From Armatimonadota bacterium (GTDB taxonomy: Bacteria; Armatimonadota; Chthonomonadetes; Chthonomonadales; Chthonomonadaceae): a DNA stretch of 64,000 bases. Position numbers and translations under genes: made by a program. Numbering within the stretch: position 1 is the stretch's first letter; every line of letters begins with the position of its first letter. Below the pieces are notes generated by a model. The model saw nothing but the letters and a program-made list of their open reading frames with translations. It ran no database searches and had not been told where the DNA came from. The stretch spans positions 584,715 through 648,714 of the forward strand of contig JAGWMJ010000001.1 of assembly GCA_028871815.1 (NCBI GenBank). The letters run 5' to 3'. Shown in pieces: positions 38,606 to 64,000 of this stretch.

Positions 38606-40399
38606 ATGCAGAGCGGAACGCAGAAGCGCGATATGGGCCAGTACATGGTCGAGAAGAACTACATCTCGGCCCAGCAGCTTGAAGAGGCTCTTAAGGCCCA
38701 GGTGAACAGTAAGAGTGAGCTCACGCGCGTGTTTCTTGAGATGGGCATCAACCCGCGAGACGTGTACGAAGCCAAGGCGTTTCAGGAGAACGTGCCGTTC
38801 GTGGACCTTACGGTGTTCAAACCCGAGCAGAGCGCGCTCAACGTTGTTCCGGAGCATATCGCCAAGCGCTACACCGTGCTGCCTGTCAAAAAGGATGGCG
38901 GCACCCTGTATGTTGCAATGGCCGACACCAACAATCTGGAGGCCACCGACGACCTTCGGCTGGTTTCGCGCTGCCAGATAAAGACCGTGCTTGCCGTGCC
39001 GGAGCATCTGGAAGATGCCATTGGGCGGCTGTACACGGGAACGCAGGTAGACCTGGCGTCTGCCGATGGCAAGGGCGGCATGAATCCGTTGAAGGGCGGC
39101 AGCGCCGACATCATGGACGCCGACGTGAAATCCTCAATGGCCGAAGTAATGGCCAAGTACGGCATGCGAGGCGACGCCGCCAAGGAGGATGACGAGGACG
39201 ACGACGCGATTTCCAAGGTGGTGGAAGAGGCCCCGATTATCCGTCTGGCGCACACAATCATTATCCAGGCGATCAAGGAAAAGGCTTCGGACATCCACCT
39301 GGAACCGGATCGCAAATCGGTTCGGATCCGGTACCGCATAGACGGCGTTCTGCATGAAACCATGCAGATGCCCAAATACATCCAGATGCCGCTGACGGCG
39401 CGGTACAAGATTCTTGCCGAGATGAACATCGCCGAGCGGCGCGTGCCTCAGGATGGCCGCATCGCCGTGCGCTTCTCCGGCGCCGAGTTTGATCTCCGCG
39501 TTTCCTGCCTGCCAAACCTGCACGGCGAAAAGATCGTCATGCGGATCCTGGACAAGAGCAGCGTTATGATCGGCTTGAACAAGCTGGGCTTCACTCCTGA
39601 GGTTCAGGCACAGCTTGAGGAGCTGTCGCAACAGCCGAACGGCATGCTTCTTTCAACAGGACCCACAGGGCACGGCAAAACAACCACCCAGTACTCGGTG
39701 CTCAACAAGCTGAACTCGGTGGAGAAGAACATCCTCACCGTTGAAGACCCGATTGAGTACCAGCTGAGCGGTATCACGCAGGTGCAGGTCAATCCCAAGG
39801 CCGGCCTGATGTTCGGTAATGCACTGCGATCATTCCTCCGGCAGGACCCGGACATCATCATGGTTGGCGAAATGCGCGACCTTGAAACGGCGGGAATCGC
39901 CATCGAGTCGGCTCTTACCGGCCACCTCGTGCTTTCCACGCTGCACACGAATGACGCCCCTTCCGCCACTATCCGCCTCATTGATATGGGGGTGGAACCG
40001 TTCCTGGTCTCGGCAACGGTAGTCGGCATACTTGCCCAGCGGTTGGGACGCCGGATCTGTACCGGCTGCAAAGAGTTCTACGACGTGCGCGCCTCGGATC
40101 TGCATAACTTCGGCTTTGTGACGGAAGATCCGGACGCCATGGTGCAGATTGCACGCGGCAAGGGCTGTGAGGTATGCCGCTATACGGGGTACAAGGGCCG
40201 CACCGGCTTTTACGAGCTGATGCGGATGAACGCCGAGATGGCCGAAATGGTGGTCCGGCGTGCGCCGCTTTCGGAGCTGAAGCGCGCTGCCAAGGCCAAC
40301 GGGATGCACGAACTGCGGGAAGATGGCTTACTGAAGGTTCTCGACGGAGTCACCACACCGGACGAAGTTCGGCGAGTGGTGTTTACCGCAGGATTCTAG
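38606..40399 (+). CDS. pilB: Type IV pilus assembly ATPase PilB (GspE family) with an N-terminal T2SSE_N domain.
   Basis: Walker A (STGPTGHGKTTT), an Asp box, Walker B and the tetracysteine CTGCKEF...CEVCRYTG are present. The start is chosen at the ATG that has GGGGAGG 8 nt upstream. Confidence 0.9.
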   Translation: MQSGTQKRDMGQYMVEKNYISAQQLEEALKAQVNSKSELTRVFLEMGINPRDVYEAKAFQENVPFVDLTVFKPEQSALNVVPEHIAKRYTVLPVKKDGGTLYVAMADTNNLEATDDLRLVSRCQIKTVLAVPEHLEDAIGRLYTGTQVDLASADGKGGMNPLKGGSADIMDADVKSSMAEVMAKYGMRGDAAKEDDEDDDAISKVVEEAPIIRLAHTIIIQAIKEKASDIHLEPDRKSVRIRYRIDGVLHETMQMPKYIQMPLTARYKILAEMNIAERRVPQDGRIAVRFSGAEFDLRVSCLPNLHGEKIVMRILDKSSVMIGLNKLGFTPEVQAQLEELSQQPNGMLLSTGPTGHGKTTTQYSVLNKLNSVEKNILTVEDPIEYQLSGITQVQVNPKAGLMFGNALRSFLRQDPDIIMVGEMRDLETAGIAIESALTGHLVLSTLHTNDAPSATIRLIDMGVEPFLVSATVVGILAQRLGRRICTGCKEFYDVRASDLHNFGFVTEDPDAMVQIARGKGCEVCRYTGYKGRTGFYELMRMNAEMAEMVVRRAPLSELKRAAKANGMHELREDGLLKVLDGVTTPDEVRRVVFTAGF

Positions 40400-40487
40400 G
40401 CCGAATAGAGAGAAATCACAGTCGAGGGCCGGCGGCGCCAGCAGCCGGCTCCTCAGCCCGGCAGCCATCCGGGCAGGAGTAGACCCA

Positions 40488-41738
40488 TTGTCCGATAATC
40501 CCATTCCAGCGGTACCACCGCTCCGACCGCAGCAGCCCGGCGGCGCCCCCGATCCGCAGGCAGCCGCCGTCAACCCGATGACCGGCGAGGCGGCGCAGCC
40601 GATTGCCAACGTGGCGTCGGCGCGTCCCACACCGCTGGACGACGCCCATGTGGACGACCTCTTGCGCCTGGTGCACGAGAAGGGCGCCTCCGATCTCCAT
40701 ATCGCCGTCGGGGTGCCTCCCATCATCCGCGTGGATGGAGCGCTTATACCGATCCCGTTCGAAAAGGTCTCTTCGCAGGATGCGCAGCGGCTGATCTACG
40801 ACATCCTCACGGATGAACAGATCCAGCGGTTCGAGACCGAACTTGAGCTCGACTTCAGTTACTCCCTGGCCCGCATCGCCCGGTTCCGTGTGAACGTGTT
40901 CCGTGACCGAGGCAATGTCGGCGTGGCGTTCCGGCAGATTCCGCAGAAGATACCAACCCTCAAGGATTTGGGTCTGCCAATGGTGCTGGAAGAGTTGACG
41001 CACCTTCCACGCGGTCTTATCCTCGTAACCGGGCCAACCGGCTCCGGTAAATCGACCAGCCTTGCGGCGATGATCCACCAGATCAACACCGAGCAGGGTC
41101 GGCACATCATCACCATCGAAGATCCGATTGAATACCTGCACACGCACCGGTGCAGCATCATCAATCAGCGGGAAGTTGGGCAGGATACCAAGCAGTTCAA
41201 GAATGCGCTGCGCGCCGCGCTCCGTGAAGACCCGGACGTGATCCTTGTGGGTGAAATGCGCGATCTCGAGACGATGCAGATGGCGGTATCCGCCGCGGAA
41301 ACCGGTCACCTGGTCTTCGCCACGCTGCATACCAACTCCGCAGCGACATCCGTAGAGCGCATTGTCGACTCCTTCCCATCCGGCCAACAGGAGCAGGTGC
41401 GGCTGCAGCTATCCAACAACCTGCAGGCTATTCTCTGCCAGCAGCTCATCCCGCGCGCCAATCAGCCGGGACGCATCTGCGCCATCGAAATCATGCGTGC
41501 AAGCCCCGCCATACGCAACCTTATCCGCGAAGCCAAGGCGCACCAGATCACCTCGATGATCCAGACCAGCGCCAACATGGGAATGCAAACCATGGATCAG
41601 AGCCTGCGCGATCTCTATCTCCGCGGCATGATCAGCTACGATGAAGCGATGACGCGGGCCATGAACCCGACAGAACTCGAGAAGATGATACGAACCGCAA
41701 CCATGCCCGCGCCCGGACAGGGGCAATACTCGCGGTAA
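40488..41738 (+). CDS. pilT: Twitching-motility retraction ATPase PilT, with a Pro-rich extension of about 55 aa at the N-terminus.
   Basis: GASDLHIAVGVPPIIRVDG, Walker A (VTGPTGSGKSTSLAAMI), IITIEDPIEY and LVGEMRDLET are present. The TTG start has AGGAG 8 nt upstream. Confidence 0.9.
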   Translation: MSDNPIPAVPPLRPQQPGGAPDPQAAAVNPMTGEAAQPIANVASARPTPLDDAHVDDLLRLVHEKGASDLHIAVGVPPIIRVDGALIPIPFEKVSSQDAQRLIYDILTDEQIQRFETELELDFSYSLARIARFRVNVFRDRGNVGVAFRQIPQKIPTLKDLGLPMVLEELTHLPRGLILVTGPTGSGKSTSLAAMIHQINTEQGRHIITIEDPIEYLHTHRCSIINQREVGQDTKQFKNALRAALREDPDVILVGEMRDLETMQMAVSAAETGHLVFATLHTNSAATSVERIVDSFPSGQQEQVRLQLSNNLQAILCQQLIPRANQPGRICAIEIMRASPAIRNLIREAKAHQITSMIQTSANMGMQTMDQSLRDLYLRGMISYDEAMTRAMNPTELEKMIRTATMPAPGQGQYSR

Positions 41739-41789
41739 CGTTCTCACACGGCGCGCCCGCTGCCAGCGGGCGCGCATCCGGAGGCAGAT

Positions 41790-43037
41790 ATGCCCGTCTA
41801 CAGCTATACCGTCCGAGACTCCACCGGCGCCGTGCGTACCGGCACCTCCGAAGCCGAGAACCAGGACATCCTGAAGCGGCGATTGCAGGAGCAGGGATTC
41901 AACGTCAGTGACGTCAAGCAGACCGGCTCCGGCAAAAAGAAATCGGCGGCCGCCGGGTTTGGTCGCGTCAAACTGGCCGATCTCTCCATCTTCTGTCGCC
42001 AGTTCTCCACCATGATCGATGCCGGCGTATCGCTGGTGCGGGCACTGGACGTATTGGGCGAACAGACCACCAACCCCAAGCTGAAGCGCATCATACACGA
42101 TATTCAGGTGGAAGTTGAAGGTGGCCAAACACTGTCGCGGGCAATGCAGAAGTTCCCCAAGGTGTTTAGCAACCTCTTCATCGGATTGATACGCGCCGGC
42201 GAAGTGGGTGGTGTGCTTGAGGAAGCCCTGCAGCGGCTGTCGTTCTTCCTGGAAAAGGATATGCAGTTGCGGCGCAAAGTTAAGTCCGCAATGACATATC
42301 CTGTTATTGTGGTTATTGTGGCCATTCTGATTGTCCTGGGCCTCTGCACATTTATCGTTCCGAAGTTTGTGGACCTGTTCAAAGATCTGGGCGTCAAGCA
42401 GTTGCCGGCGATGACGCAGTTTCTGGTCGATTTCAGCGACTTCCTGAAGACAAAATGGTACATCGGCCTGGCCATCATCTTCTTCTTGTGGCTGGCCATC
42501 AAATACTTCGGCACGACGCGCATCGGGCGACGCGTCATCGACAGAGTCAAGCTCAAGGTTCCGGTGTTCGGCAAACTGGGCCACAAAATCTGCCTGGCGC
42601 GATTCTCCCGAACTCTTTCGACACTGCTGGTTTCCGGCGTGCCGATTCTGCAGGCGATGGATACCGTGGCCGGTACGGTCGGCAACGAAATCATCAGTGA
42701 GGCGCTGCTCAACGCCAAGGCGAGGATCCGTGAAGGTGACCGCATCAACGACCCGCTGGCCAAGAGCAAAATGTTTCCGCCCATGGTGGTGCATATGATC
42801 TCGATCGGTGAAGAATCTGGAGCTCTCGATCAGATGCTCAGCAAGATCGCAGAGTTCTACGAAGACGAGGTGGATGCTCAGCTCCAGTCGTTGACAGCCG
42901 CAATCGAGCCCGTGATGATCGTCATCCTTGGCGTATGCGTCGGCTTTATCGTCATCGCCATGTTCATGCCTCTCATCCAGGTCATCGCCAACCTTAGCGG
43001 CGGCGGCGGCGGCGGTGCCGGCGGCGGCGGCGATTAG
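41790..43037 (+). CDS. pilC: Type IV pilus platform protein PilC (GspF family).
   Basis: Two T2SS-F repeats are present (QFSTMIDAGVSLVRAL / ARFSRTLSTLLVSGVPILQAM). The tail is Gly-rich and encoded by a (GGC)n tract. Confidence 0.9.
   Translation: MPVYSYTVRDSTGAVRTGTSEAENQDILKRRLQEQGFNVSDVKQTGSGKKKSAAAGFGRVKLADLSIFCRQFSTMIDAGVSLVRALDVLGEQTTNPKLKRIIHDIQVEVEGGQTLSRAMQKFPKVFSNLFIGLIRAGEVGGVLEEALQRLSFFLEKDMQLRRKVKSAMTYPVIVVIVAILIVLGLCTFIVPKFVDLFKDLGVKQLPAMTQFLVDFSDFLKTKWYIGLAIIFFLWLAIKYFGTTRIGRRVIDRVKLKVPVFGKLGHKICLARFSRTLSTLLVSGVPILQAMDTVAGTVGNEIISEALLNAKARIREGDRINDPLAKSKMFPPMVVHMISIGEESGALDQMLSKIAEFYEDEVDAQLQSLTAAIEPVMIVILGVCVGFIVIAMFMPLIQVIANLSGGGGGGAGGGGD
42997..43033 (+). repeat. (GGC)n trinucleotide tract encoding the Gly-rich tail of PilC.
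   Basis: agcggcggcggcggcggcggtgccggcggcggcggcgat encodes SGGGGGGAGGGGD. Confidence 0.7.
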
Positions 43038-43081: not shown

Positions 43082-44110
43082 TTGGTGGCGCCGGAGAGTT
43101 TCTGGCCGATCGTTGCGTTCGTTTTTGGCGCGTGCGTAGGCAGCTTCCTGAATGTGGTGATCTACCGCCTGCCACGCGGTCAAACACTCGTCAAGCCGGA
43201 ACACTCCTACTGTCCAAACTGCAGCGGACGGCTCCAGGCTATCGACCTGGTGCCCCTGCTAAGCTTTATAGCACTGCGCACCCGGTGCCGGCAGTGCGGC
43301 AAGCCAATATCGTGGAGGTACTTCTGGGTAGAGCTGCTTACCGCGGCGCTCTTTGCCGTGATAACCGCGCGATTTCAGAGCCAGCCCTTCCTGGCGGTGG
43401 CGCTGCTTCTGTTTACGTCGGCGCTCATACCGATCGCGTTCATCGATCTGGCAACTTTTACTATCCCAAACTCTCTGAACCTCCTCGCCTTTGCCATTCC
43501 CGTGCTGCTGGATGGTATTCTGCTGGTGTCGCACGCACCGGGACACCGGCTGATGTTCGGTTGGCTGCCGGTCTCCATCGCCGGTGCAGTAGGCGGCATT
43601 CTGATGCTCGGTGGCTTTCGGACCCTGGGGTCCATCGTGTTCCGTCGCGAGGCGATGGGCCTTGGTGATGTCTACCTGGCGCGCGCCATAGGCGCTATGC
43701 TGGGCCTGATCGTTCTGCCGGGTCAGGAGCCGCTGCGACTGTTCCCGGTATGGCTGCTGGCATCCACGGTGACCGGCATGGTGGTCGGCGGCGTGCCGCT
43801 ACTGGTAGACCGGTTCCGTAAGAGAGTGACGCCTGCCGATGACGGTGGGCAGGGCGAAGCCGGTCCTGTTCGTGCGTCAGCGCTGGTAACGGAGTGGCTG
43901 GCGGTATTCCTGTTCTGGGATCTCTGGGAGATGTTCCGTAAGGATGGCGGCAGCGACGAGACAACCATTCTCGTGGAGGGGCCGCTGGATCCGACCGCGG
44001 TGCCCTTTGGACCGTATTTAGGTATCGGGTTTCTGGTGACGTTGTTCGTCGGCGCGCAGGTTACCAACTGGTACCTGGCCACCATGCTGGGGCAGGGCCG
44101 TCATCTATAG
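43082..44110 (+). CDS. pilD: Prepilin peptidase PilD (A24 family) with an unusual C-terminal insertion.
   Basis: A Zn-binding CPNC...CRQC is present. The catalytic Asp motifs are FIDLATFTIPN and GLGDVYL. The C-terminus ends PFGPYLGIG. An extra segment of about 70 aa lies between the second Asp motif and the C-terminus. Confidence 0.85.
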   Translation: MVAPESFWPIVAFVFGACVGSFLNVVIYRLPRGQTLVKPEHSYCPNCSGRLQAIDLVPLLSFIALRTRCRQCGKPISWRYFWVELLTAALFAVITARFQSQPFLAVALLLFTSALIPIAFIDLATFTIPNSLNLLAFAIPVLLDGILLVSHAPGHRLMFGWLPVSIAGAVGGILMLGGFRTLGSIVFRREAMGLGDVYLARAIGAMLGLIVLPGQEPLRLFPVWLLASTVTGMVVGGVPLLVDRFRKRVTPADDGGQGEAGPVRASALVTEWLAVFLFWDLWEMFRKDGGSDETTILVEGPLDPTAVPFGPYLGIGFLVTLFVGAQVTNWYLATMLGQGRHL

Positions 44111-44224: not shown

Positions 44225-45094
44225 ATGAGCCGAAATCACGTAGCCGGTGCGGACGGATTTACGCTGATCGAACTGCTTACGGTAATAGCAATTGTGGCCG
44301 TTTTGGCTGCCCTGCTGTTTCCGGTCTTTGCCCGTGCCCGCGAAGCGGCACGTTCCGCCACCTGCTTTACGCAGATGCACGACATCTACCGCGCTGTGGA
44401 GATGTACAAGGCCGATAACAACCGCTATCCTGCCAGCCTCATCGGCTTCGCGCAGTCCACCTCGGTGTACACGGCGCCCGATGGCAGCACCCACCTTGAG
44501 TTCTATACCGGTTCGGGTACACCCGCCGGACTGGATAAAGATACGTATCGACCGCTGATGGGCGGCCAGAAGTACCTGACCGGCGGAGACAACACGTTCC
44601 ACTGCCCGGATGACCCGATACAGGACCCAACGCGGCTGATGACTGCCGTCTACCCGACCAACACGCCCCTTGCGGGTCAGCCGGTATCGTTTACGGCGGA
44701 GATCGCGCACAACATCGGCAACACGCTGGTAGATCCGGCAGTTATTGGCGGACCGGCCTACTTCTTCTCGTTCGACAGCTATGACGCCGGCCCTCAGGTA
44801 AATGCCGACGGCAGCGCGCCTGCCACCCCGGTTACCGAGCTACACTACAGCCTCGATTGGACCGGGCAGACCGGCCCAGCCGATAATACATGCACCACGC
44901 ATCCAGACAGCCTGTGCATGAATCAGTTGAAGTATCCGGATCCGCCGAAGGACAAGACGGTTTTAACCTGGTGTACGTGGCACGTTTTTACGGCCCACGC
45001 CACCATGGTGAATGTACTACTGCTTAGTGGCACGGCCCGGCCCGTGCCGGTGAATACGTTTGAAGCCAAAGGCCCGCTCAACCTTGAGTACTAG
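44225..45094 (+). CDS. Prepilin-type protein with a DUF1559-like C-terminus (class III signal peptide).
   Basis: The leader is MSRNHVAGADG, followed by FTLIELLTVIAIVAVLAALLFPVFARAREAARSATCFTQM. The C-terminus reads HATMVNVLLLSG (H-X9-SG). The ATG has GGAAAGG 4 nt upstream. Confidence 0.8.
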   Translation: MSRNHVAGADGFTLIELLTVIAIVAVLAALLFPVFARAREAARSATCFTQMHDIYRAVEMYKADNNRYPASLIGFAQSTSVYTAPDGSTHLEFYTGSGTPAGLDKDTYRPLMGGQKYLTGGDNTFHCPDDPIQDPTRLMTAVYPTNTPLAGQPVSFTAEIAHNIGNTLVDPAVIGGPAYFFSFDSYDAGPQVNADGSAPATPVTELHYSLDWTGQTGPADNTCTTHPDSLCMNQLKYPDPPKDKTVLTWCTWHVFTAHATMVNVLLLSGTARPVPVNTFEAKGPLNLEY

Positions 45095-45109: not shown

Positions 45110-46120
45110 ATGAATCTACGCACTACCGCACGTGGACGGCGACACGGCTTTACGCTGATTGAACTGCTCACGGTTATCGCAATCATAGCGCTTCTTGCAG
45201 CAATCCTCTTTCCCGTGTTCAGCACGGTACGAGAGCAGGCACGCGAGAGCAACACGATGAGCAATATGCACGATATCTACGTGGCGGCGCGCTCATTCCA
45301 GCTGGATGAGGGGCACTTCCCGAACGTGCTGTTCGGTTACGCAATGGTGCAAACCGGCGTCAACCCCGACACCTACCGGCCGGCCAAGCCCACGGATACC
45401 AGCGTGCTTCCAATGGACCAGGCGGTTGAGAAGTTCGCTACCGAGAGTGGCATCGCGAACTACGGCTACCTATACGGCGAGCAGATCAAAGACTTCAGCG
45501 CCTTTACCAACATCGACGATACGGTCACCAACAAATCCGCGGTCACCATCGCATACTATCCACCCAACTCCGCCTACGCTCAGTCTTATGTGAAGAATCA
45601 CGGCGGAAACGTAGATAGCGTGGTGGTCACATGGGAAGCGCCAACGCAGGACCCGAACTCGCTGTGCACCTACTATGGCGACTCGGATCTGCCCGACGCC
45701 AGCTACGCCTCCAGCGACGGAAAGAACTACACCAGCACGCCTCTTCCCAAGCTGTTCTACAAAATGGACAGCATGGATATCAGCCCCATGCTGGATGACC
45801 TGGGCAACAAGGTTTTCGAAGCCGACGGCGTTACGCCCAAATACGAGCTGAACTACTCGCCCAACTGGAGCCATCAACTCTACCAGCCCGTCAGCGCGGC
45901 TTATCCGCTGGGCTGCGATGTGGGAGCGAACTTTGCACCGGTCGTCAATCAACTGAAGTACCAGAACCCACCACGCAACCGGACGGTGATCACCTGGATC
46001 ACTACGCACGCCGCAGTCACGGGTAACGGCCAGATACTTACGCTTCTGGATGACGGTACGACAATCAAACTGCACGCCGCGCAGGCCTATTCCGACCTGC
46101 CAATGAACTACGCGCCGTAA
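45110..46120 (+). CDS. Prepilin-type protein with a DUF1559-like C-terminus.
   Basis: The leader is MNLRTTARGRRHG, followed by FTLIELLTVIAIIALLAAILFPVFSTVREQARESNTMSNM. The C-terminus reads ...LTLLDDGT. Confidence 0.8.
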   Translation: MNLRTTARGRRHGFTLIELLTVIAIIALLAAILFPVFSTVREQARESNTMSNMHDIYVAARSFQLDEGHFPNVLFGYAMVQTGVNPDTYRPAKPTDTSVLPMDQAVEKFATESGIANYGYLYGEQIKDFSAFTNIDDTVTNKSAVTIAYYPPNSAYAQSYVKNHGGNVDSVVVTWEAPTQDPNSLCTYYGDSDLPDASYASSDGKNYTSTPLPKLFYKMDSMDISPMLDDLGNKVFEADGVTPKYELNYSPNWSHQLYQPVSAAYPLGCDVGANFAPVVNQLKYQNPPRNRTVITWITTHAAVTGNGQILTLLDDGTTIKLHAAQAYSDLPMNYAP

Positions 46121-53692: not shown

Positions 53693-53694
53693 GA

Positions 53695-56600
53695 ATGCGG
53701 ACAAGAGATATGTTGAGAGGAACAGCCAGCCGGTTTACCGGCGCCGCACTTGTTGCGGGGGCATTGCTTGCCCTTACGTGCGCACCGGCAAGTGCCGATG
53801 TATACGGTTACGCCTCCAGCCTGCGCCAGGTTCACGCCTGCGTCCTGGTCTCGAATGCCGCGGCCACCAACGTCAATGGCGTCACTGTGCCCGAAAACTG
53901 TACTCCCTTCGTCTTTTATGCGATGGACGTGCGCACCGACCTCAAACCGGGCGGCTGGAGCTTTTCGAATCCGCTGGCTCCCGCAACCATCACGAGCACG
54001 ATGTGGCAGCGGTGGTACAACCGCCAGGTTGGAAGCGCAACTCCCGACCCGGCGTTCCAGCCGGGTACGCCCCAGGAGATCAGCTTCCAGATTGGCGCGC
54101 CACTGACCAAAAACATGGCGCCCTACTGGGAGGTGAACCTCGACACGGTTTCGAGCTCCGATCTCAACCAGTTTGATGTGGTTCTGATGGCGTATCGCGA
54201 TGCGTTCAGCTTTACACCGGATGAGCGTGCCAAGCTGCAGCATTTTATGGATGGTGGCGGCACAATCTGGCTGGAAGATGAAGGCGGCGCCAACGTGGTG
54301 GCTAATGGTGGTCAGTTCGCCATTCCGGTGATCTTCAACACAAACCCGGCCGCCGGCGTCGCACCGACTCTCGCGTCGTTCAACCATCCGCTGGTCAACT
54401 TTCCTTACACCATTTCGGCAACGCAGATTCAGGGCCTGGGTCAGGGCGAAACCGGACCGCACCACATTGCCACGTCGCCCACGGGTGGGTTGGTAAGTCC
54501 CAGCATCGTGGAACCGGTGGTTCGGCAAGGCTCGCTCAACCTGCCACTGGTCTATGCCGGTGATTATGGCGCCGGGCATCTGCTCATCAGTTCGCTTGGC
54601 GTTGCCACCGGCATCGCGGGATACCTGGGCGGGCCCAACATCGCGAACGAGGGGCCGAACACGGCTACAATCACGGGCACGCAGCTTTTGGGCGTTCGTG
54701 CGGTCGATCTGGAATTCGCCATCAACGCTGTGGCATGGACCTCCTCGATTACCGAAGGCGCCGTAAACGCACGCCGTGCGGGTGGCGCCACAGAGACGAT
54801 GGACGCCGCGCTCGGCGAGAAATGGGCCACCATACCGCACGCCGGCCGAACCTCCGCCGATTCCGGCGCCGTCAGCTACAAGAACGTCGTATTCTGGGTA
54901 GGACCTGCCGCCAATGGAAGCAATGCCAACCCCAGCGTATTACACGCCTTTAATGCCAACCCGGGTCAGGACCTGGATGGAGACCTGAGCTCGGACGAAG
55001 GTCTGGTGGACTACTCCACGGGTACCCCGTGGGATGAGATCTGGAACTACGACCTCACCAAGGTTAACGGCAGCGGAACCACCACAACCTCGCGCGTTTC
55101 AACTCCTACCGTCATCTCGCTGGCTAACTCTGCCAACGGGCTGTCCCAGGATCTGGTAGCGGTAACGAATTCCGTTGGCGTAACCATGGCGTTCCAGGCA
55201 TTTCCTGGCGGCAGCGTCTTCTCCAGCGTTGGTCAGCTCGCCTGGACAACATCGGCACTGTACGGACCAGGTCCCGACATTTCTGCGGAACTCTCGTTCC
55301 CTTATCGGAATCAAAGCGCGGGTTCAGGTGATCCAAACCAACTCTATCCAGACATCCCGGCCCCGGCTCCCGTGCTTTCCGAAGGCGTTTTATTCGCGAT
55401 TGCGTATGTGCAGTCCGCCGACGTAAACCACTCGTGGAGGGTGGCAGCCATCGACCCAGCGACCGGTGCCAACATCTTTGGAACCGCAAGCGGGTATGCC
55501 CCATTCTCTACTCCCGGAGTGATAGGACTGCCCACACCTACGGGCCCGCTTTCGGCGTCTTACGTACGGGACGACCTTACCGGCGCGCAAGACAAAATGA
55601 TCATGGTGCCCACCGAGGACCTCTCCAACAATACGGTTACCGGCGCCATCGATGGGCTCTGGTTCGCAACGCGCGATGAGCCACTGGTGGCGTCGTCCAC
55701 GGGCTTAGCCGGCGACTACAGCCCGATTGGCAACCGTGCGCATGTGCCGTGGTACGCACCGACCACAGGCGCGAATACCTCCCTGCTGCCCGTCGTTTCG
55801 GTAGTGACAACCAATACACAAACAGGGTTGGTCACCAACGTCACGCAGTTGCAGTCCACGCAATACCAGATTCTCTATCTCGGCGCGCCGGGTTCGCGCA
55901 ACATGGTGGTGCGCCTCTCAACGCCACTCAATCCGCCCGTTGGGTTTACTCAGACGGTTAGCGCCGACTACACGGTGGATTGGCCGGATGCGCCGATTGG
56001 GGCCGGGGCCTCCGTACCAATCGCCTCGGAACTCAGCCTCTTCTCCGGAACGCTGCCCCAGTACGGCAACAACTACCGGCTGTTTTCACCGAACAATGCG
56101 CCAAATCGCGAACCGGTGCTTCTCTCGGGTGCGCCGGCCGTGAGCCGAAACGATCTGACGATCTTTGGCGCCGGCGATTATGACAACGCGGACCGGATCT
56201 ATGCCTATCGGCCTCAGTTTGCCACGGGCAGGTCCAGCGCAGGCTATGCCGTACCCTACGTGCCTGAAATCGCCTGGATGTTCTCGCCAGCCACCGCCTT
56301 CAGCGACGGCAACACGGCGGACTTCGTTCCTGCCCGGTTTGTGGTGGCGCCCAATACAGGCGTTGCTACCCCGAACAACGGCGCGGCTCCAACGGCGTTT
56401 TACGATTTCGAAATGGTCGGCAGCCCCGCGGTAGTCAACGGGACGGTGTACGTTGCCGGCTGGGGGCATCTTGTTGGCGACAGCGGGCAAGGGGGCGACG
56501 ACGTCTCCATCATTGCGGCGCTTCGCGAGCAGCCGCCACTCACTTTCACGATCCCCAACCTTCCCGCGGGCTCCACGGTGAGTGACATCACGGTTTCGCA

Positions 56601-58698
56601 GGTGGATGTGCTGCAGAGCAGCGCAACCAATCCGCGGTACATCCGCGTTTCACAGAACTTTACCAATCCCAGCGCGCCGCAGCGGATGACCTTTGACCCC
56701 ACCTCGGGTCAGGTGCACATGCTGAATCTCTATACGCCCGATGGATGTCTGAACACGGCGCTGCCACTGCAGGTAACCGTTGTTGGCAGCACCGGCACCA
56801 ACACCGTTTCCACGGTGCGGGCCAGCAACGGGTTTGGGCCATTGGATAACTGCCTTTGGTATGTGGTGATTCCGGTCAGCGGAATGGCGGATGCCGCCGG
56901 CGACCCGGTTCTTCCATTTGCGCCGGTGCCACCACCACCGGTAGGCCCGCCGACAGGCAGCGCCAATCTGTATCGGTACTACACCGCCAGTGGTCCCAGC
57001 GTGGTGGGTAACTCGCTCTTCGTTGGCATGCGAAACGGCTATATCGTGGCGCTGCCACTCACCGGCCTTCCCACCAACGGTTCGCAAGTTTCGCTGCTGA
57101 AGGATCCTACGCAACTACCCAGCGTGCAGAATTCCATCCTTACGGCACTGCCGGCCATTCAGAATCCAGCGACCGGTATCGCATTCGATACGCCCGTTAT
57201 CAATCCGCCGCTGGCCACCAACGGCACGCTGCTGGTAGGCACCCCGAACGGACTCTCCGCGCTGGATGATCAGGTGACGCTTATCGCCGACAGTGACCGA
57301 CTGCTGGAAGTGAACCACGCCGGGCAGGCCGTCTGGTCGCTTGGCAGCACACGATCGCTCGGTGTCGCCGGAGGCACTCTCGTGGATAGCGGGCAGATCA
57401 TCACGTCCAAGGTTCCGCTGGCCAACCCGAATGTGGCGCACCACACCTCGCTGGAGACTTTTGTCGTGGCGGAAACCGGCCACAACCGGGTGATTCAGGT
57501 TGATAAGGGCGGCATCGTGGATTACGAGATTGCCGCTCTGCGCAACGATCTCCACGTGCTGCCACCGGGCAGCCCGCTTTCGCTTAATGCGCCCACGGAT
57601 GTACAGGTACTTCCCGACCAGGGCGCCGCGATCAGCTTCACCAGTCCGCTCAATGGAGTCACATACAGCTATGCAGGCGCCTACATCGCACAGCACTATC
57701 TGATCGCCGATGGCGGGAACTACCGCATTGTGGAGGTGGAGGACGCCTACAACAGTTCCGGCGAGCCCGTTGTACTTACCGGAAGCGACGGCAGCTCGGT
57801 GACGATGCTCGACCAGGTCGTCTATTCCACGGAGACCACGGAACAAAACCAGCGGTTGCGCTATCGAACGGTTCAGTTCTTCAGCACCATTGATCGATCC
57901 GGGCTCAACCCCATAGCGGCAAACTATCTTTGCGCCACCGTGGATAACCAGCGGCTCGCCGCTACCGATCCGGGTGTGGCAGGCGTTGGTCTGGACGGAA
58001 GCAATGTGCGGGGACCGGGTGGCTCGTTGAGCCTGATACACCGGTATCCGGCGACGGGCGCACCGTACAAGGATGGCGCGGTGGCGGCGGTGATCAACAG
58101 CTTCCAGCTGCCAAACGGCGCCATTCAGGCGGTCGATCGGCCAACATGGTTCAAAGAGGTGAATGTGCCGGGGCAGAGTTTACCGGACTACCTGCTTGCC
58201 GATGCAAATGGCGTGTACGAGTTGCAGCCGGCTGGTAACTCCGCCAAAGTGGTCTGGATGCTCAGCACCCAGGACTACTTCAACCTGACCGGCCACCCGC
58301 TCCGCGCGACCTGCATCCAGCGCCTCGGCAATCTGGACTACGACTCGACGAACAACCTGTTCTATCCGCGGTATCTGATTACAAACGGCTACTCAGGCAA
58401 CGATCAGGTTGGCGCCACATTCGGGTTCGGCCCCGGCAGTCCCTACGATGGCCGCGTGACCGGTGAAGTGGTTGAGGTGAGGAGCCTGGAATACTACATG
58501 GGCGGATACGGGGTAGCCGACGCGCTCTATACTTCGGCCACCGGCGCACTTCAGATGAACCCAGCGTCGGCTATCACGTGGATTTGCCCGTCTGAGTCGA
58601 TCTCAAACGGCAAGATTATCCGCTCCATCGGCTCGCTCACAGGAGCCACCAGTACGTCAATGCTTTCTCAGCCTACCTACAGCGAACGGCGTCCGTAA
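53695..58698 (+). CDS. Giant secreted PilY1-like protein (1668 aa) with PQQ-like beta-propeller repeats.
   Basis: A Sec signal reads MLRGTASRFTGAALVAGALLALTCAPASA. Blade-like repeats include VVNGTVYVAGWGHLVGDSGQ, GNSLFVGMRNGYIVALP and LATNGTLLVGTPNGLSALDD. It sits at the PilY1 position after the pilVWX-like genes and starts 3 nt after the previous stop. Confidence 0.6.
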   Translation: MRTRDMLRGTASRFTGAALVAGALLALTCAPASADVYGYASSLRQVHACVLVSNAAATNVNGVTVPENCTPFVFYAMDVRTDLKPGGWSFSNPLAPATITSTMWQRWYNRQVGSATPDPAFQPGTPQEISFQIGAPLTKNMAPYWEVNLDTVSSSDLNQFDVVLMAYRDAFSFTPDERAKLQHFMDGGGTIWLEDEGGANVVANGGQFAIPVIFNTNPAAGVAPTLASFNHPLVNFPYTISATQIQGLGQGETGPHHIATSPTGGLVSPSIVEPVVRQGSLNLPLVYAGDYGAGHLLISSLGVATGIAGYLGGPNIANEGPNTATITGTQLLGVRAVDLEFAINAVAWTSSITEGAVNARRAGGATETMDAALGEKWATIPHAGRTSADSGAVSYKNVVFWVGPAANGSNANPSVLHAFNANPGQDLDGDLSSDEGLVDYSTGTPWDEIWNYDLTKVNGSGTTTTSRVSTPTVISLANSANGLSQDLVAVTNSVGVTMAFQAFPGGSVFSSVGQLAWTTSALYGPGPDISAELSFPYRNQSAGSGDPNQLYPDIPAPAPVLSEGVLFAIAYVQSADVNHSWRVAAIDPATGANIFGTASGYAPFSTPGVIGLPTPTGPLSASYVRDDLTGAQDKMIMVPTEDLSNNTVTGAIDGLWFATRDEPLVASSTGLAGDYSPIGNRAHVPWYAPTTGANTSLLPVVSVVTTNTQTGLVTNVTQLQSTQYQILYLGAPGSRNMVVRLSTPLNPPVGFTQTVSADYTVDWPDAPIGAGASVPIASELSLFSGTLPQYGNNYRLFSPNNAPNREPVLLSGAPAVSRNDLTIFGAGDYDNADRIYAYRPQFATGRSSAGYAVPYVPEIAWMFSPATAFSDGNTADFVPARFVVAPNTGVATPNNGAAPTAFYDFEMVGSPAVVNGTVYVAGWGHLVGDSGQGGDDVSIIAALREQPPLTFTIPNLPAGSTVSDITVSQVDVLQSSATNPRYIRVSQNFTNPSAPQRMTFDPTSGQVHMLNLYTPDGCLNTALPLQVTVVGSTGTNTVSTVRASNGFGPLDNCLWYVVIPVSGMADAAGDPVLPFAPVPPPPVGPPTGSANLYRYYTASGPSVVGNSLFVGMRNGYIVALPLTGLPTNGSQVSLLKDPTQLPSVQNSILTALPAIQNPATGIAFDTPVINPPLATNGTLLVGTPNGLSALDDQVTLIADSDRLLEVNHAGQAVWSLGSTRSLGVAGGTLVDSGQIITSKVPLANPNVAHHTSLETFVVAETGHNRVIQVDKGGIVDYEIAALRNDLHVLPPGSPLSLNAPTDVQVLPDQGAAISFTSPLNGVTYSYAGAYIAQHYLIADGGNYRIVEVEDAYNSSGEPVVLTGSDGSSVTMLDQVVYSTETTEQNQRLRYRTVQFFSTIDRSGLNPIAANYLCATVDNQRLAATDPGVAGVGLDGSNVRGPGGSLSLIHRYPATGAPYKDGAVAAVINSFQLPNGAIQAVDRPTWFKEVNVPGQSLPDYLLADANGVYELQPAGNSAKVVWMLSTQDYFNLTGHPLRATCIQRLGNLDYDSTNNLFYPRYLITNGYSGNDQVGATFGFGPGSPYDGRVTGEVVEVRSLEYYMGGYGVADALYTSATGALQMNPASAITWICPSESISNGKIIRSIGSLTGATSTSMLSQPTYSERRP

Positions 58699-58701: not shown

Positions 58702-61700
58702 ATGAGCAAGGATCTATTGCGGCTAGCGTGGCGTGCAGCCCGCACTGTTCTCCCACTGCCGGTGGCAGTGCTTGGCCTATGGCTGGCTGCCGGCACGGCA
58801 TGCCGCGCCCAGGCACCCATCGTATTCGATAACCTCGATTGGACAGTAGATCGTGGCGCCACGACGATGGTGGGGCTGCTAGTAGCGCCTAACGCCAACC
58901 TGCTGCGGCAGGGACGCAACATCACTGCGGCGACGGCGCCTGTGGGCAACGGCCTCAATCCCGGCCCGTCGGTTCGCCGCTGGGTCTTCCCGCGTACTTC
59001 CGATATAGCCCTCACCGCCGCAAACGGCAATCCGGTCGGCAACGAGATCATCGACAACCCCAATCTCGCAGATCCCATTTTCACCGGCATCACGCAGCAG
59101 CCGCTGGGTGACAACTCGCAGGATACTACCGGCGCAGAAACCCGTGTTCAACCGTTTCCACCGCTAAATGCAGCCGGGTCACCGGTGGGTGAAGATCCGC
59201 AGCAGATGGCGCACGCCTTCTGGCTGCCGAATCTCGCCACATGGACGCCCACGGGCTTCAATCTGCCGTTTGGCGCCACGAACGACTATCGCGCGCCCGG
59301 AGGCGGCTTTTCGTTCAACTCCGATCCAAGTTTGAGTTGGGATTTTGACTATGGCTATGTGCCGGCCATCCATGACGATTTCAACGTCAACCGACCGGAT
59401 GGCGCCGACGGACCTGCGACGGCGGATGAGCTTGCGGCGCTGCCGAACGCGCCGTACTACGTCTACAACGCCGTCAACAGTACGCTCAATGCCTCCGCTC
59501 TCAATGGCGCCGGTACTCCAACCGCGGTATGGTCTGCCGGTCAGTACAATCTGGCCAGCGGCCGGTACGCGGTGGCGCTGTATTCGCCTGGCGACGGCAG
59601 CCTTGTTGGAACCACGCCGAGTCCTGAAGTCTCACGGGCTTTTGTCCGGGTTGCCTGGATCAACACTATAAATGCGAATGGCTCGCTAAACTGGGGTACC
59701 GGTACGCCGGGCGCCGGTGGCATCACCGATCCCGATAACAGCCGTATCTTTGAGGTAAACCTGAGCGCCGGTGGCTGGATTACGCTGCAGGGCGGCGGCC
59801 TGGGTCCGGCCGCGTTTGATCAGAACAATGCGGCAACCGCCAGCAACGCAAACCAGATTGTGGTTGTGCTCTATTCGCTGACGCCCGATCAACTCAACGA
59901 TCCAATCTACGGTGGCCCAACCAACGCCATTCCGCCCGTTGTTACCGCAGATGCGTGCCGCTTTTCACCGGTAGCCGCCAGCGGTACAACTCCACCGGCG
60001 CAGCTGACCAAGTACAACACGGCAACGCCTCCGGCAGCGCTCTGGACGATCAGTCCAGCCGGCCGCATTCTTGGTCCGGAAGTGGCGACCGATAAAATCA
60101 AGGTTGCCGCCGGCATCGTTCAGCCGCTGCACTTCGTGGCGCGCGAAGAGGATGTGCCGAATACCACCGATCTCTCCGCCGTTAATCCAACGCTGCCGAT
60201 TAGCGCAACAAATATTGCCACACCCGATCCAACCGCGGAGGCTACGGCGCCAGTCTTCTACTGCCTGGATAGTCGCAACAGCGTGGGCCCGGCCAACGAC
60301 CTCACCGATCCCAATTACTTCTCAGTATCGAGGGTGGTTTGGCGATACGTCGGCCTGCCGGATGGCGCCAGCGGTACGGCCAGCGCATCTCCCACGCTGG
60401 CAAACGTGCGGTGTCGCGATGGTGTGACGCGGCCCATGGTCTATTTTGTTACCACCAACTCGGGCGGGGCATTGGGCCACATCTACGCCATCGATCCACT
60501 GCCGGCCGATATAGCTGCCGGTAACCTGGCCCTGACGCCAACCGTGTATTGGGCTTACCCCAGCGCAATACCATTGACGGCTGCCGAAACGGCCGCTTCC
60601 GACATCACCCAGCTCCACGACCCCAACTATACGGGAAGTACGCCGTTTGTCGGCTATGCGGCCACCTTTGGCGGTGACGTGGCGATTCCGTATTTCGACG
60701 GCGACATCATCACCGATCGGGCCACGGGAACGCAGCAGGTGCGCTCCGATACCGCCATTACATTTGGCGGTGTGCAGGCGGCGCCGGCCCTCATGAGTTC
60801 GCCCGATCCTAGCATCAAGGGGAATGTACTCGTTGTGCCCGATATGGATGGGCGCGTCTGGGCGTTCGACGCCGGAGGGCGTGGAGATTGGGGCACCGCG
60901 GGCGTGTCGTACCCCGGCACAACCCAGCGCTTGTGGACCTGGCCGCACTTTGGGGTGGATGCCTTCCGTCAGGCAATCAAGCCGGCCAACTGGGCCAGTG
61001 TACCGAACAAATTCGCCGACGAAGCCAGCCTTGGACCGTTCCTCTCGTCACCGGCCGTGGATCGCACCTACCCGCTGCCCATCGGCACAACACTTGTGCC
61101 GTTTATCGTCGGCTCGTCGGATGGCCACCTCTATTCGGTGGTGCCCGCCCTGGATGCACTCACGGCGGTTGGTAATGGCACGGCTTCCTGGAACAACCGG
61201 ATTCTGTGGCGATATCCAAGCGCCAACAACACGCTCGGCAGCCCTGTGAGCACACCGGCAATCTTCAAACCAACGAATGCCACGAGTGCGTACATCTACT
61301 TTACGGCCGGTGGCCGTGCCTATTGCGTGCCGGAAGCGCCCGACATCCGCATCAAGCCGCCCACAGTGAACTCGCTCTCGTGGGTCTTTCCATATACGCC
61401 CAATCCGCCCGCTCCGAACCCGAAGGACGACACGACAGCTTCACTGGACCCGGGATTCAATCTCAGCGCGCCATTGCTGATGGAAGCTGGTGTGAACGGA
61501 AACCAGTACGATGCCTGCTACCTGCTTCAAGGTAACGGCACCGTGATCGGGCTGGATGCAGCGCCGGTGGCCACGGGCGTAGCCGCGGGCCATGCGCTGG
61601 TAGTGGCGTCCGGGCAGAGCCTCACGGGCAGTTTCAGCGAAAGCTCGCCGATCGGCACGTGGCTCACCAGTTCGCCCGGCCTCGGCGCCAACCCGAACGT

Positions 61701-64000
61701 GCCCACCATGAACACGCCGACGATGCTCTTCGGAGACGATGACGGCAACATCTGGGGGCTTTCAACCGTTCCCCTGGCAGGCAGCATCGGCCCGGTTGGC
61801 AACGGCGCCAAGACCGCGCCGCTTCTGCCGGTTGATTACTACCACTCCGATTCCAGTGCATCCCGCACCGGCGAAGCCGTGCAGGTTGGTGGAGACAACC
61901 AGCCGGAGAGCGCCTCGTACCCCGTGCCGAATGGCATGCTGGCGGAAGGAGATCAAGGCGGACAGCTTCGCGGCTACGGGGTCGGCACCGATCTCACCGG
62001 CGGCGCTGCCGGCTTTGGCAACACCGTGGGCAAGAGCGAGCCCGCCGAAAACAGCATCGGCGGCAACGGTCCCGTGAGTATCGATCTCCGAATCCTGGAC
62101 TTTTACGATCCTGCGGTCTGGCAGCACTTTATGGGCCTTACTGCGCCATACGAAACGCCGGGAAGGACGCCGGCGGGCGCCTCGTTCGCCAACACGCAGC
62201 TTCCGATCACAGGCAACATCGAGGCCGGGAGCACGGCGATCGCGGTGGACTGGGGCGACTACCTGTATATAGCCGCGTGGGGCGTGTATCATGCCCAGCC
62301 AAGCAGCCTGACCCCGGGCCAGCAAGTGGCGGCGCCGGTCGTTATCTGCCACTTCACCATCACGCAACCTGGACGTTCGATTGCGCCGCAGATCACCGTT
62401 CCAGCAATGACGCTCCACACCGGCCTCAACTGGCCCGATGATCCCGGTATCACCCTGGCCGAGCACAACAACCTCGCCATCTTCGGCCAGAATGCCAGCG
62501 GCAGCGTTGGCCAGCTGGTTGGAGAGGCGAACAACGTCTTTCCGTGGGTCGCCATCTACAAGGTACCGATCCGGCCCGCGGGGCTCGCCACCTTCCTGCC
62601 CGGCCTGGCAAACTACCGCGTCACTGCCCAAGCGTTCATCCAGCAATCCACACAGACGAACGGCATATACCGCGCCCAGTCGAACATCCTGCAAGACGGT
62701 CAGCCTGATCTTGTGGGCCTGTCAAAATCGGCCTACCCACAGAATCAGAATCTCTCAATCACAGCGAATTCGCCGCGCAAGGTCTTCATCACCAACCCGA
62801 TTGGTGTGACGGTGCGCAGCTACAGCCCGCTGCAGGCGAACGGCGATCTGACGCCGATGATGGACGGGCAAAACGGGCTTACCGACCCGGACACCGGCGC
62901 TATCGGCTGGGGAGCGGCTGCCGGAGTGCTCGCGTCGCCCGGGATCTTCGAAGTGTTGGGCAACGGAAACGAAATCATCAACCCGCTCAGCCCAACCGCG
63001 GCAGGCAGTAGCGCCGGCGGCGCCACACTTAAATCGCTCTTCGCGCCCATCGGCATGGTGCAGGATGGCTCCAGCGGTCAGTACAGCGGCATCGATCCCA
63101 CCACCGGCAACGCAGTGCCAGCCTTCTTTGTGCTGGATCGCAGCAACATTCGGGCGATGACGGGCAGACCGCTGCTGATTCGCATCCAGCCCAGCACCGA
63201 TCCCAACGCCACGCTCACCGGCGGTCCGCTGCATTGGCACGGTGGTCCCAGCTCGGTAATGAATCCGCTGCCCTGGGATCAACTGCCTACCGATTCGCAG
63301 GACACGTCGGACTACCCAAGCCTGCCATTTGACAGTTTGAGCATCACGACCACCGCCGGCGAGGACGCTACCAAATCGTTGGTGCCGCTGCTGCCGCCGC
63401 TCTATCCAAACGGCCAGTCCGATCCCAAGTCGCGGCAGCCGCAGCCCACGGCCCTGAATCTATCCGTTCAGGTGCCGAAGTTCCAGCCGGCCAATGTGAA
63501 CCGTGGCGCGATATCCTTTACCGATGGCGGGGCGAGCTACAACTTCGGCAGTTCGTACCTGGATATCAGCGGAACGACTCGTGGCGCAAACAACAGCGAT
63601 CCGCTTCTAACAGGACCACTGGTCTCCGGCGCGGCCTCGCTTGCTGGAGGCGGCCAGCCGTGGGGACTGGGGCGGACCGGCTCGTACCCCGCTGGCGGAT
63701 ACATTGGCGACTTCGATATCGATGCGGTGCCGGTTGGTTCGGCCAGCGGCCGCTTCACAGTGCCCTACCGCACCGTTGAGATGGGCCTCACCGTGCCGCC
63801 GGACGAGAAGCTCTCGGTTCAGGAAGAGACGCTCGATCTCGGCAAGCTGCCGATGGCCGAAGGCTACAGCGACACCGATTACACCGGCACGAAGTTCTAC
63901 CGTGTTCCGTTTGCGCCTGCCGGTACCAGAGACTATCTCAACCCGCTGCCTGTGGATCCGTGGGACCCCGGCTCGGGTGATCCGTCCCAGACCTTCTTCC
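58702..64000 (+). CDS. Second giant secreted PilY1-like beta-propeller protein, at least 1766 aa; C-terminus beyond the window.
   Basis: The plus-strand frame is open from the ATG 58702 to the window end with no stop, so it is missing from the ORF track. The signal peptide is MSKDLLRLAWRAARTVLPLPVAVLGLWLAAGTACRAQA. Beta-propeller-like repeats include GNVLVVPDMDGRVWAFDAG, TLVPFIVGSSDGHLYSVVPALDA and TMLFGDDDGNIWGLS. Confidence 0.6.
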   Translation, partial: MSKDLLRLAWRAARTVLPLPVAVLGLWLAAGTACRAQAPIVFDNLDWTVDRGATTMVGLLVAPNANLLRQGRNITAATAPVGNGLNPGPSVRRWVFPRTSDIALTAANGNPVGNEIIDNPNLADPIFTGITQQPLGDNSQDTTGAETRVQPFPPLNAAGSPVGEDPQQMAHAFWLPNLATWTPTGFNLPFGATNDYRAPGGGFSFNSDPSLSWDFDYGYVPAIHDDFNVNRPDGADGPATADELAALPNAPYYVYNAVNSTLNASALNGAGTPTAVWSAGQYNLASGRYAVALYSPGDGSLVGTTPSPEVSRAFVRVAWINTINANGSLNWGTGTPGAGGITDPDNSRIFEVNLSAGGWITLQGGGLGPAAFDQNNAATASNANQIVVVLYSLTPDQLNDPIYGGPTNAIPPVVTADACRFSPVAASGTTPPAQLTKYNTATPPAALWTISPAGRILGPEVATDKIKVAAGIVQPLHFVAREEDVPNTTDLSAVNPTLPISATNIATPDPTAEATAPVFYCLDSRNSVGPANDLTDPNYFSVSRVVWRYVGLPDGASGTASASPTLANVRCRDGVTRPMVYFVTTNSGGALGHIYAIDPLPADIAAGNLALTPTVYWAYPSAIPLTAAETAASDITQLHDPNYTGSTPFVGYAATFGGDVAIPYFDGDIITDRATGTQQVRSDTAITFGGVQAAPALMSSPDPSIKGNVLVVPDMDGRVWAFDAGGRGDWGTAGVSYPGTTQRLWTWPHFGVDAFRQAIKPANWASVPNKFADEASLGPFLSSPAVDRTYPLPIGTTLVPFIVGSSDGHLYSVVPALDALTAVGNGTASWNNRILWRYPSANNTLGSPVSTPAIFKPTNATSAYIYFTAGGRAYCVPEAPDIRIKPPTVNSLSWVFPYTPNPPAPNPKDDTTASLDPGFNLSAPLLMEAGVNGNQYDACYLLQGNGTVIGLDAAPVATGVAAGHALVVASGQSLTGSFSESSPIGTWLTSSPGLGANPNVPTMNTPTMLFGDDDGNIWGLSTVPLAGSIGPVGNGAKTAPLLPVDYYHSDSSASRTGEAVQVGGDNQPESASYPVPNGMLAEGDQGGQLRGYGVGTDLTGGAAGFGNTVGKSEPAENSIGGNGPVSIDLRILDFYDPAVWQHFMGLTAPYETPGRTPAGASFANTQLPITGNIEAGSTAIAVDWGDYLYIAAWGVYHAQPSSLTPGQQVAAPVVICHFTITQPGRSIAPQITVPAMTLHTGLNWPDDPGITLAEHNNLAIFGQNASGSVGQLVGEANNVFPWVAIYKVPIRPAGLATFLPGLANYRVTAQAFIQQSTQTNGIYRAQSNILQDGQPDLVGLSKSAYPQNQNLSITANSPRKVFITNPIGVTVRSYSPLQANGDLTPMMDGQNGLTDPDTGAIGWGAAAGVLASPGIFEVLGNGNEIINPLSPTAAGSSAGGATLKSLFAPIGMVQDGSSGQYSGIDPTTGNAVPAFFVLDRSNIRAMTGRPLLIRIQPSTDPNATLTGGPLHWHGGPSSVMNPLPWDQLPTDSQDTSDYPSLPFDSLSITTTAGEDATKSLVPLLPPLYPNGQSDPKSRQPQPTALNLSVQVPKFQPANVNRGAISFTDGGASYNFGSSYLDISGTTRGANNSDPLLTGPLVSGAASLAGGGQPWGLGRTGSYPAGGYIGDFDIDAVPVGSASGRFTVPYRTVEMGLTVPPDEKLSVQEETLDLGKLPMAEGYSDTDYTGTKFYRVPFAPAGTRDYLNPLPVDPWDPGSGDPSQTFF

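Follow-up and report, generated by a model that had tools for sequence, protein, structure and literature searches.

Eleven consecutive open reading frames (ORFs) on the + strand occupy positions 38606 to 64000 of the 64-kb window, by which we mean the whole stretch of 64,000 nucleotides analysed here. Their order is pilB, pilT, pilC, pilD, prepilin 1, prepilin 2, and then five genes for large proteins that we call P7, P8, P9, P10, and P11. The host is an Armatimonadota bacterium of the order Chthonomonadales. We think it fairly probable that this locus codes for a type IVa pilus that is retractile and has a greatly enlarged, lineage-specific priming and tip complex, in which P7, P8, and P9 would be the minor pilins and P10 and P11 their exported partners. 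The genes were taken from the ORF list with starts supported by homologues, the start codons being chosen from the gene calls of a sister assembly and from homologue alignments. Successive genes are separated by 178, 51, 44, 114, 15, 117, 24, 78, 2, and 3 nucleotides, in that order. The full P11 has 2829 amino acids (aa), as seen in the identical protein P0241 of the sister assembly, where P11 closes the pilus cluster, whose total length is about 28.6 kb. A preliminary description of this DNA had reported co-directional genes with small gaps, and with all eleven genes on the + strand and gaps of 2 to 178 nucleotides this was right, as were its coordinates and protein sizes to within one residue. 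It had also recognised the textbook gene order of a type IV pilus, which, for a locus of the type IVa kind, is borne out by the Pfam and NCBIfam assignments of the machinery genes.

PilB has the Pfam domains T2SSE (E 3.5e-129) and MshEN (E 4.5e-19), and its best NCBIfam model is TIGR02538 for type IV-A PilB, which outscores the GspE model and is slightly under its own cut-off (628 bits against 675.65). PilT belongs to the PilT/PilU family TIGR01420 with 498.4 bits against a cut-off of 319.1. PilC has two T2SSF stretches (Pfam, E 4.9e-71) and in NCBIfam scores best with NF052607, the Thermus-type PilC. PilD has the Pfam domains A24_N_bact (E 1.8e-32) and Peptidase_A24 (E 1e-9). The two genes that follow code for prepilins. 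In the motifs given here a slash separates positions -1 and +1. The N-terminus of prepilin 1 reads ...GADG/FTLIELLTVIAIVAVLAALLFPVF and that of prepilin 2 reads ...RRHG/FTLIELLTVIAII, so that both have the class III signal peptide G/FTLIELL with Gly at -1, Phe at +1, and Glu at +5, and both match N_methyl and TIGR02532. Besides N_methyl, prepilin 1 matches the GspG N-terminus (E 8e-12) and, weakly, the DUF1559 N-terminus; the N_methyl match of prepilin 2 has an E value of 5.9e-8 (Pfam). The two prepilins are 28.6% identical to each other (blastp, E 4e-24), and in more distant orders a single pilin gene is found at their position.

P7, P8, and P9 begin as pilins do. The family consensus is RG/FSLIEVLVV for P7 and RG/FTLIELLVV for P8, with Phe at +1 and Glu at +5 in about 90% of the members. 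The consensus of the P9 family, RG/QTLIVALAVLF, has a near-invariant Gly, an invariant Gln at +1, and Val or Ile at +5 in place of Glu, and a helix without Glu5 is the pattern described for PilX and GspK (PMC7541494). The P9 gene is also the last among the minor pilin genes, and in the model of P9 the N-terminal helix comprises residues 41-96. In profile-profile comparisons the pairs P7/P8 (E 5.7e-8) and P8/P9 (E 2.6e-4) aligned in register, over about the first 70 columns only; therefore, P7, P8, and P9 share the pilin helix and nothing else. Because these prepilin motifs are conserved in the families, we rejected the explanation that the N-terminal helices are chance hydrophobic segments, and the pilin-like helices of the preliminary description are genuine. 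Its PilV-like and PilW-like labels held in part, namely for the N-terminal 50-70 residues that resemble those models, but the scores are all below the cut-offs. Thus, P7 reaches 25.5 bits with the PilV model TIGR02523, over residues 17-66 only, where 52.2 are needed. The same N-terminal match was found in all 37 of the P7-family members searched, and among 40 members of the P8 family 38 matched Verru_Chthon protein C and 33 matched HpsC, all of them below cut-off. No Pfam family, PilX_N (PF14341) and GspK (PF03934) included, was found in 36 P9-family members, nor any NCBIfam match for the P9 of the window, and no FimU/GspH-class gene is recognisable in the cluster. When the three family profiles were run against the sequences in the PDB they found pilin N-termini only, or nothing.

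Structures were predicted for P8 and P9 with a predicted local distance difference test score (pLDDT) of 82-86. In both models a pilin helix and sheet are followed by hundreds of confidently folded residues, and on this basis both proteins are predicted to carry pilin-type folds. The P8 model contains a GspJ/PilW-type pilin fold after the class III signal peptide, with XcpW, EpsJ, and GspJ, pseudopilins of type II secretion systems (T2SS), as the closest matches. The P9 model resembles ComZ (PDB 6QVI) and solenoids of the ice-binding type, and it also shows a sandwich like those of carbohydrate-binding modules (CBM) 6 and 35 and a tapirin-like helix. ComZ itself has been reported to be a pilin of GspK-like form, to have a solenoid of the ice-binding type, and to be able to fit only at the pilus tip (PMC6561018), and both of its structural matches recur with the P9 model. 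We regard the link between the modelled P9 and ComZ as moderate and not strong because a Foldseek search of the PDB with the P9 model gave no significant match and did not recover ComZ, and because the P9 family profile found nothing among PDB sequences, so that there is no sequence similarity to ComZ.

P10 and P11 are not pilins but have Sec-type signal peptides ending in AxA, that of P10 in ASA/D. The preliminary description had called them beta-propeller proteins with signal peptides, and propeller repeats were indeed found in both. The P10 family profile matched the designed NHL 'Pizza' propellers (E 1.4e-9), the NHL domain of Brat, and weakly BamB; the NHL match lies at profile positions 1116-1223, which we estimate to be residues 1210-1360 or so of the window protein. 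Toward its N-terminus P10 has a sub-threshold DUF4159 match of 22 bits, and the homologue in the Fimbriimonadales locus L059 passes the cut-off of 25.9 with 27.8. The P11 family profile matched the PQQ-type 'Cake' propellers (E 4.5e-47) and BamB, and also, for a carbohydrate-binding-like domain, residues 905-1038 of 6f2p at the C-terminus of a xanthan lyase from Paenibacillus (E 4e-14), and a distant P11 homologue gave a faint match to Golvesin_C. No Pfam family was found in 16 full-length P11-family members, and for the last 1000 or so residues of P11, past the window end, neither Pfam nor the PDB yielded a relative. The propellers among the PDB profile matches of the two proteins are of the NHL and PQQ types, and no PilY1 structure is among these matches.

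The five large genes are conserved together throughout the phylum. With a profile of P9 homologues, relatives were found in at least 398 genome loci, from which 80 were retained, nearly all of them from Armatimonadota (Chthonomonadales, Fimbriimonadales, and others). Synteny was determined by tblastn of all the window proteins against these 80 loci, and the counts cover the loci with enough flanking sequence. P7 is upstream of P8 in 55 of 55 loci, P8 adjoins P9 in 59 of 61, P10 follows P9 in 61 of 61, and P11 follows P10 in 41 of 46. In every one of those 61 loci, then, a gene for a Sec-exported non-pilin protein adjoins the minor pilin genes. PilC is within 10 kb upstream in 36 of 44 loci. 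The eleven-gene layout is repeated in a distant genome of 4.4 Mb, where the last five genes code for 639, 713, 993, 1403, and 2818 aa. An exhaustive profile search gave 857 representatives of the P9 family at 50% identity, 505 of them with E <= 1e-30. In the databases the homologues are named 'hypothetical protein' or, generically, 'type II secretion system protein', the latter being used for P8 homologues. In Fimbriimonadales the cassette of pilin, P7, P8, P9, P10, and P11 lies amid unrelated metabolic genes without pilBTCD. Since the cassette is kept together where pilBTCD is elsewhere, the distal genes behave as a module of their own. The detached cassettes are those of loci L059, L043, L046-L049, L054, L055, and L058-L063; upstream of the one in L059 (positions 1-6108) are genes for an acyl-CoA dehydrogenase, a short-chain dehydrogenase, a propeller/dockerin-like protein, and a major facilitator superfamily transporter. 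One Chthonomonadaceae metagenome-assembled genome (MAG) has two paralogous cassettes, L023 and L030 (CBDFGA01 contig_4 and contig_1). A few homologues are from bins labelled Sedimentisphaerales (Planctomycetota) or Chloroherpetonaceae (L066, P0154, P0245), which is likely due to mis-binning and not to true presence outside Armatimonadota.

Genes of this size raise the question whether they are artefacts of assembly in which neighbouring genes were fused. Two contigs of GCA_028871005.1, a sister short-read assembly of a MAG labelled Armatimonadetes bacterium, match the window with 100% identity. That assembly breaks within P9 and within P10 (L001, L083), and the window bridges the gap with 1,656 bp (52694-54349) found in neither contig. 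In addition, the P8 and P10 homologues of one long-read MAG are broken into several short ORFs (L082, positions 7583-18637). We read these splits as probable frameshift errors of that assembly because all other assemblies keep the P8 and P10 homologues whole. Full-length homologues of each large protein were found in the 80 independent Armatimonadota loci with conserved lengths, from about 540 to 815 aa for P7, 613-820 for P8, 861-1124 for P9, and about 1300 to 1780 for P10, and the homologous loci are continuous across the bridged join. Identity to the large proteins of the window is distributed over their whole length, the bridged stretch included, and is not confined to the N-termini. This whole-length conservation in the homologues rules out fused-gene artefacts, and the conserved prepilin motifs and the confident single-chain models of P8 and P9 also speak against them. 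We have therefore rejected misassembly or frameshift fusion on the strength of uninterrupted homologues in dozens of independent assemblies, and that the large ORFs or their pilin helices are spurious is now scarcely credible. The preliminary description had itself proposed such an artefact as what would overturn it, but the same genes in the same order and sizes are present in relatives.

Core minor pilins together with PilY1 form a priming complex, stay at the pilus tip, and mediate adhesion (PMC7541494, PMC10191384). In the mechanism that we propose for the enlarged type IVa pilus, PilD would process both prepilins and all three giant minor pilins. Bundled by their N-terminal helices, P7, P8, and P9 would prime the assembly of the filament on PilC and remain as a complex at the tip, where their 600-1000 extra residues would add a large, exposed surface. 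P10 and P11, exported by Sec, would be captured in the periplasm by the tip complex, in a PilY1-like role, and carried out on the tip, and PilT would then pull on the bound pilus. We think adhesion to polysaccharides or surfaces to be the likeliest job because of the carbohydrate-binding-like modules in P9 and P11. These folds, and the tapirin-like helix in the P9 model, suggest glycan or surface binding, and the complex is probably a tip adhesin for glycans or surfaces. Cultured members of Armatimonadota are saccharolytic, which agrees with this reading. The fimbriae reported for Fimbriimonas ginsengisoli also agree with it; the genome paper of that species lists pil genes only generically (PMC4072686).

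Several observations weigh against an enlarged tip complex. The P7 and P8 copies of the window have Ala and not Gly at -1, a position where Ala is common among P8-family members. Beyond the first 50-70 residues P7, P8, and P9 match no Pfam or NCBIfam family, the matches to PilV, GspI, GspJ, and Verru_Chthon models being sub-cut-off; in P7 about 620 residues after the alpha-1 helix are without a known family, and the preliminary description was thus correct in speaking of extra domains of unknown family. The PilY1/PilC domain (PF05567/IPR008707) is absent from P10, P11, and the 16 full-length P11 homologues. Within the 64-kb window there are no pilMNOPQ genes for the PilMNOP alignment complex and the PilQ secretin; PilQ and PilM have been reported in F. 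ginsengisoli (PMC4072686). Finally, one copy each of P7 to P11 totals about 6,900 residues, for which passage through a secretin is a problem. Taken to its limit, the proposal is that the cassette of pilin and P7 to P11 builds a tip assembly which, at about 0.75 MDa with one copy of each of the five large proteins, would exceed by far the bulk of all characterised pilus tips; this is speculative and in our judgement rather unlikely. Such an assembly might not use the canonical secretin passage or might be put together outside the cell, and it would then be more than an adhesin tip, namely a phylum-specific, pilus-borne surface organelle for polysaccharide capture or cell contact, a conjecture as doubtful as the assembly itself.

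Alternatively, the distal cassette could be a T2SS-like pseudopilus, with P7, P8, and P9 as the equivalents of GspI, GspJ, and GspK at the tip of a short piston and with P10 and P11 as cargo that is released and not displayed. The P8 model comes closest to pseudopilins of the T2SS, the best N-terminal matches of both prepilins are to GspG, the P8 homologues are annotated as type II secretion system proteins, and the Sec-exported P10 and P11 sit where cargo genes might be. Moreover, the cassette is detached from pilBTCD in Fimbriimonadales, and PilY1 has been treated as a T2SS substrate analogue (PMC7541494). However, the cluster has a PilT above its family cut-off, PilB scores as type IV-A over GspE, no gspC, gspL, gspM, or gspD genes are in the cluster, and the minor pilins of the true pilus of Thermus also resemble T2SS pseudopilins (PMC6561018). 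We therefore consider the pseudopilus unlikely. A pilus for DNA uptake as in the competence system of Thermus thermophilus, at whose tip P9 would serve as a DNA receptor of the ComZ type, would account for the Thermus-type PilC and for the order of the PilV-, PilW-, and ComZ-class genes, which mirrors the Thermus order, pilA2-pilA3-comZ. But even the family profile detects no sequence similarity to ComZ, P9 is double its size and is modelled with a CBM-like sandwich, P11 has a carbohydrate-binding-like domain, ComZ is without partners of the P10 and P11 type, and comEA, comEC, and dprA were not found within the window, all of which make a competence pilus very unlikely. These two readings and the adhesive pilus are not fully mutually exclusive.

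The coordinates of the genes are given in Table 1. Scanning for promoters and terminators gave no more matches than shuffled sequence did, and no terminator lay between genes, which makes a single operon neither more nor less likely.

Table 1. Genes of the pilus cluster, with positions in the window
Gene and product	Position	Strand	Remarks
pilB, extension ATPase	38606..40399	+	597 aa from ATG 38606; ORF opens 38582; N-terminal MshEN domain
pilT, retraction ATPase	40578..41738	+	386 aa; ORF opens 40488; TIGR01420, Pfam T2SSE
pilC, inner-membrane platform protein	41790..43037	+	415 aa; T2SSF x2
pilD, prepilin peptidase	43082..44110	+	342 aa; A24_N_bact and Peptidase_A24
prepilin 1, candidate major pilin	44225..45094	+	289 aa; ORF opens 44111; N_methyl
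prepilin 2	45110..46120	+	336 aa; N_methyl
P7, giant PilV/GspI-class minor pilin	46238..48271	+	677 aa; N_methyl
P8, giant PilW/GspJ-class minor pilin	48296..50422	+	708 aa; N_methyl
P9, giant PilX/GspK/ComZ-class tip pilin (putative)	50501..53692	+	1063 aa; ORF opens 50447; N-terminus without Glu5
P10, Sec-exported, DUF4159-like N-terminus and NHL-type C-terminal blades	53695..58698	+	1667 aa
P11, Sec-exported, PQQ-like propeller and xanthan-lyase-type domain	58702..64000	+	>1765 aa, cut by window end

Directly upstream of pilB are mltG, a HAD-family phosphatase gene, and aroE (35714-38517, +), and aroE is also adjacent to pilB in a distant Armatimonadota chromosome (L040, positions 3-239). 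About 2 kb past P11 the sister assembly has a restriction/defence-type island (L083, positions 14812-22628) with genes for an SNF2 helicase, two EcoRII-domain proteins, an HATPase_c_3 protein, a Vsr endonuclease, and a cytosine DNA methylase. Elsewhere in the window there is a row of signalling genes for an FhaA_N and FHA protein, a PP2C phosphatase, a Ser/Thr protein kinase, and a HEAT-repeat protein (1643-8075, +), and an 848-aa fusion of a nucleotidyl transferase having hexapeptide repeats with a phosphoglucomutase/phosphomannomutase (19131-21677, +). The - strand codes for a molybdopterin oxidoreductase (11019-13157), a DUF58/vWA protein (16142-17458), and an LptF/LptG-family permease for lipopolysaccharide export (26155-27372), the last being consistent with an outer membrane.

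The ways in which type IV pili gain specific functions through their tip complexes are under active study, and Armatimonadota form a phylum of saccharolytic bacteria that is widespread but little studied. The cassette is the most extreme enlargement of core minor pilins found in this analysis, it is fixed across the orders of the phylum, and the P9 family, for all its 857 representatives, has no entry as a domain family in Pfam or NCBIfam. If these proteins do ride on the tip, their size would pose a problem for secretin passage, and the locus would be a natural system in which to see how far a priming complex tolerates very large cargo. At the minimum, five large families of 'hypothetical' proteins can now be annotated by context.

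The closest comparison is with FimU, PilV, PilW, PilX, and PilY1 of Pseudomonas and Myxococcus and with GspH, GspI, GspJ, and GspK, which have the same neighbourhood and the same order after the pilin gene. As in those systems, the V and W classes have class III signals with Glu5 and the X/K class does not, P8 is predicted to carry the GspJ-type fold, and a large Sec-exported non-pilin propeller protein is encoded directly after the X-class gene. Several cassettes per genome are possible, as in the MAG with L023 and L030, and Myxococcus reportedly has three minor-pilin/PilY1 clusters. On the other hand, P7, P8, and P9 with 677, 708, and 1063 aa are about 3-5 times larger than PilV, PilW, and PilX of P. 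aeruginosa, which have about 185, 275, and 195 aa. They reach no family cut-off, and the FimU/GspH-class gene is missing from the recognisable set. In place of one PilY1 there are two downstream giants of 1667 and 2829 aa. As neither has the PilY1 domain we rejected membership of P10 and P11 in the PilY1 family, and the earlier label 'PilY1-like' holds for gene position and general type only.

The Verru_Chthon cassette (TIGR02596, TIGR02598, TIGR02599, TIGR02600), which has one very large member, is weakly matched at the N-termini by P7, P8, and the prepilins through its proteins B, C, and D. The scores are far below cut-off (C, 22.4 against 256.5 bits; B, 13.6 against 51.4; D, 21.7 against 70), the matches are confined to the N-terminal helix, and P9 has no match to protein A. 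Membership in this cassette was rejected because all matches are sub-cut-off and in the N-terminal helix only, and the searched literature held no paper on it. The tapirins of Caldicellulosiruptor are not pilins and have no pilin N-terminus, and the likeness to them is only at the level of a generic beta-helix.

Two precedents come nearer in design. ComZ of T. thermophilus is about 550 aa long, with a solved chain of 518 residues, and P9 is about twice that length. P9 shares no sequence similarity with ComZ, Foldseek misses the match, and the P9 model has at least one extra CBM6/35-like beta-sandwich; unlike P7 and P8, the pilins that neighbour ComZ are small. Modular pilins consist of a pilin module and a grafted functional module, and many are predicted to carry modules that are undefined in domain databases (PMC8179133). 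Examples such as PilB and PilC of Streptococcus sanguinis, CofB, and TcpB have a bulky grafted module that is expected to be located at the tip and to bind (PMC8179133, PMC9934059). P8 and P9 as modelled likewise have a pilin module and a further structured one. In this locus, however, enlargement affects three core minor pilins in a row, with modules that resemble neither one another nor any domain in the databases, and the set is fixed phylum-wide with two giant partners. Strictly defined, a modular pilin has a module that also occurs apart from pili, and the CBM-like sandwich of P9 alone comes near to this. In the preliminary description this architecture was not recognised as a described system. 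That stands insofar as nothing in the searched literature describes P7 to P11, searches for pili of Armatimonadetes and Chthonomonas having given generic gene lists or nothing, but modular pilins (PMC8179133) and ComZ (PMC6561018) are precedents for pilins with grafted or inserted modules. The cassette thus extends a known design and is not a new kind of machine: the principle of an enlarged tip pilin was already known, and what is new are these families, their scale, and their fixation throughout the phylum.

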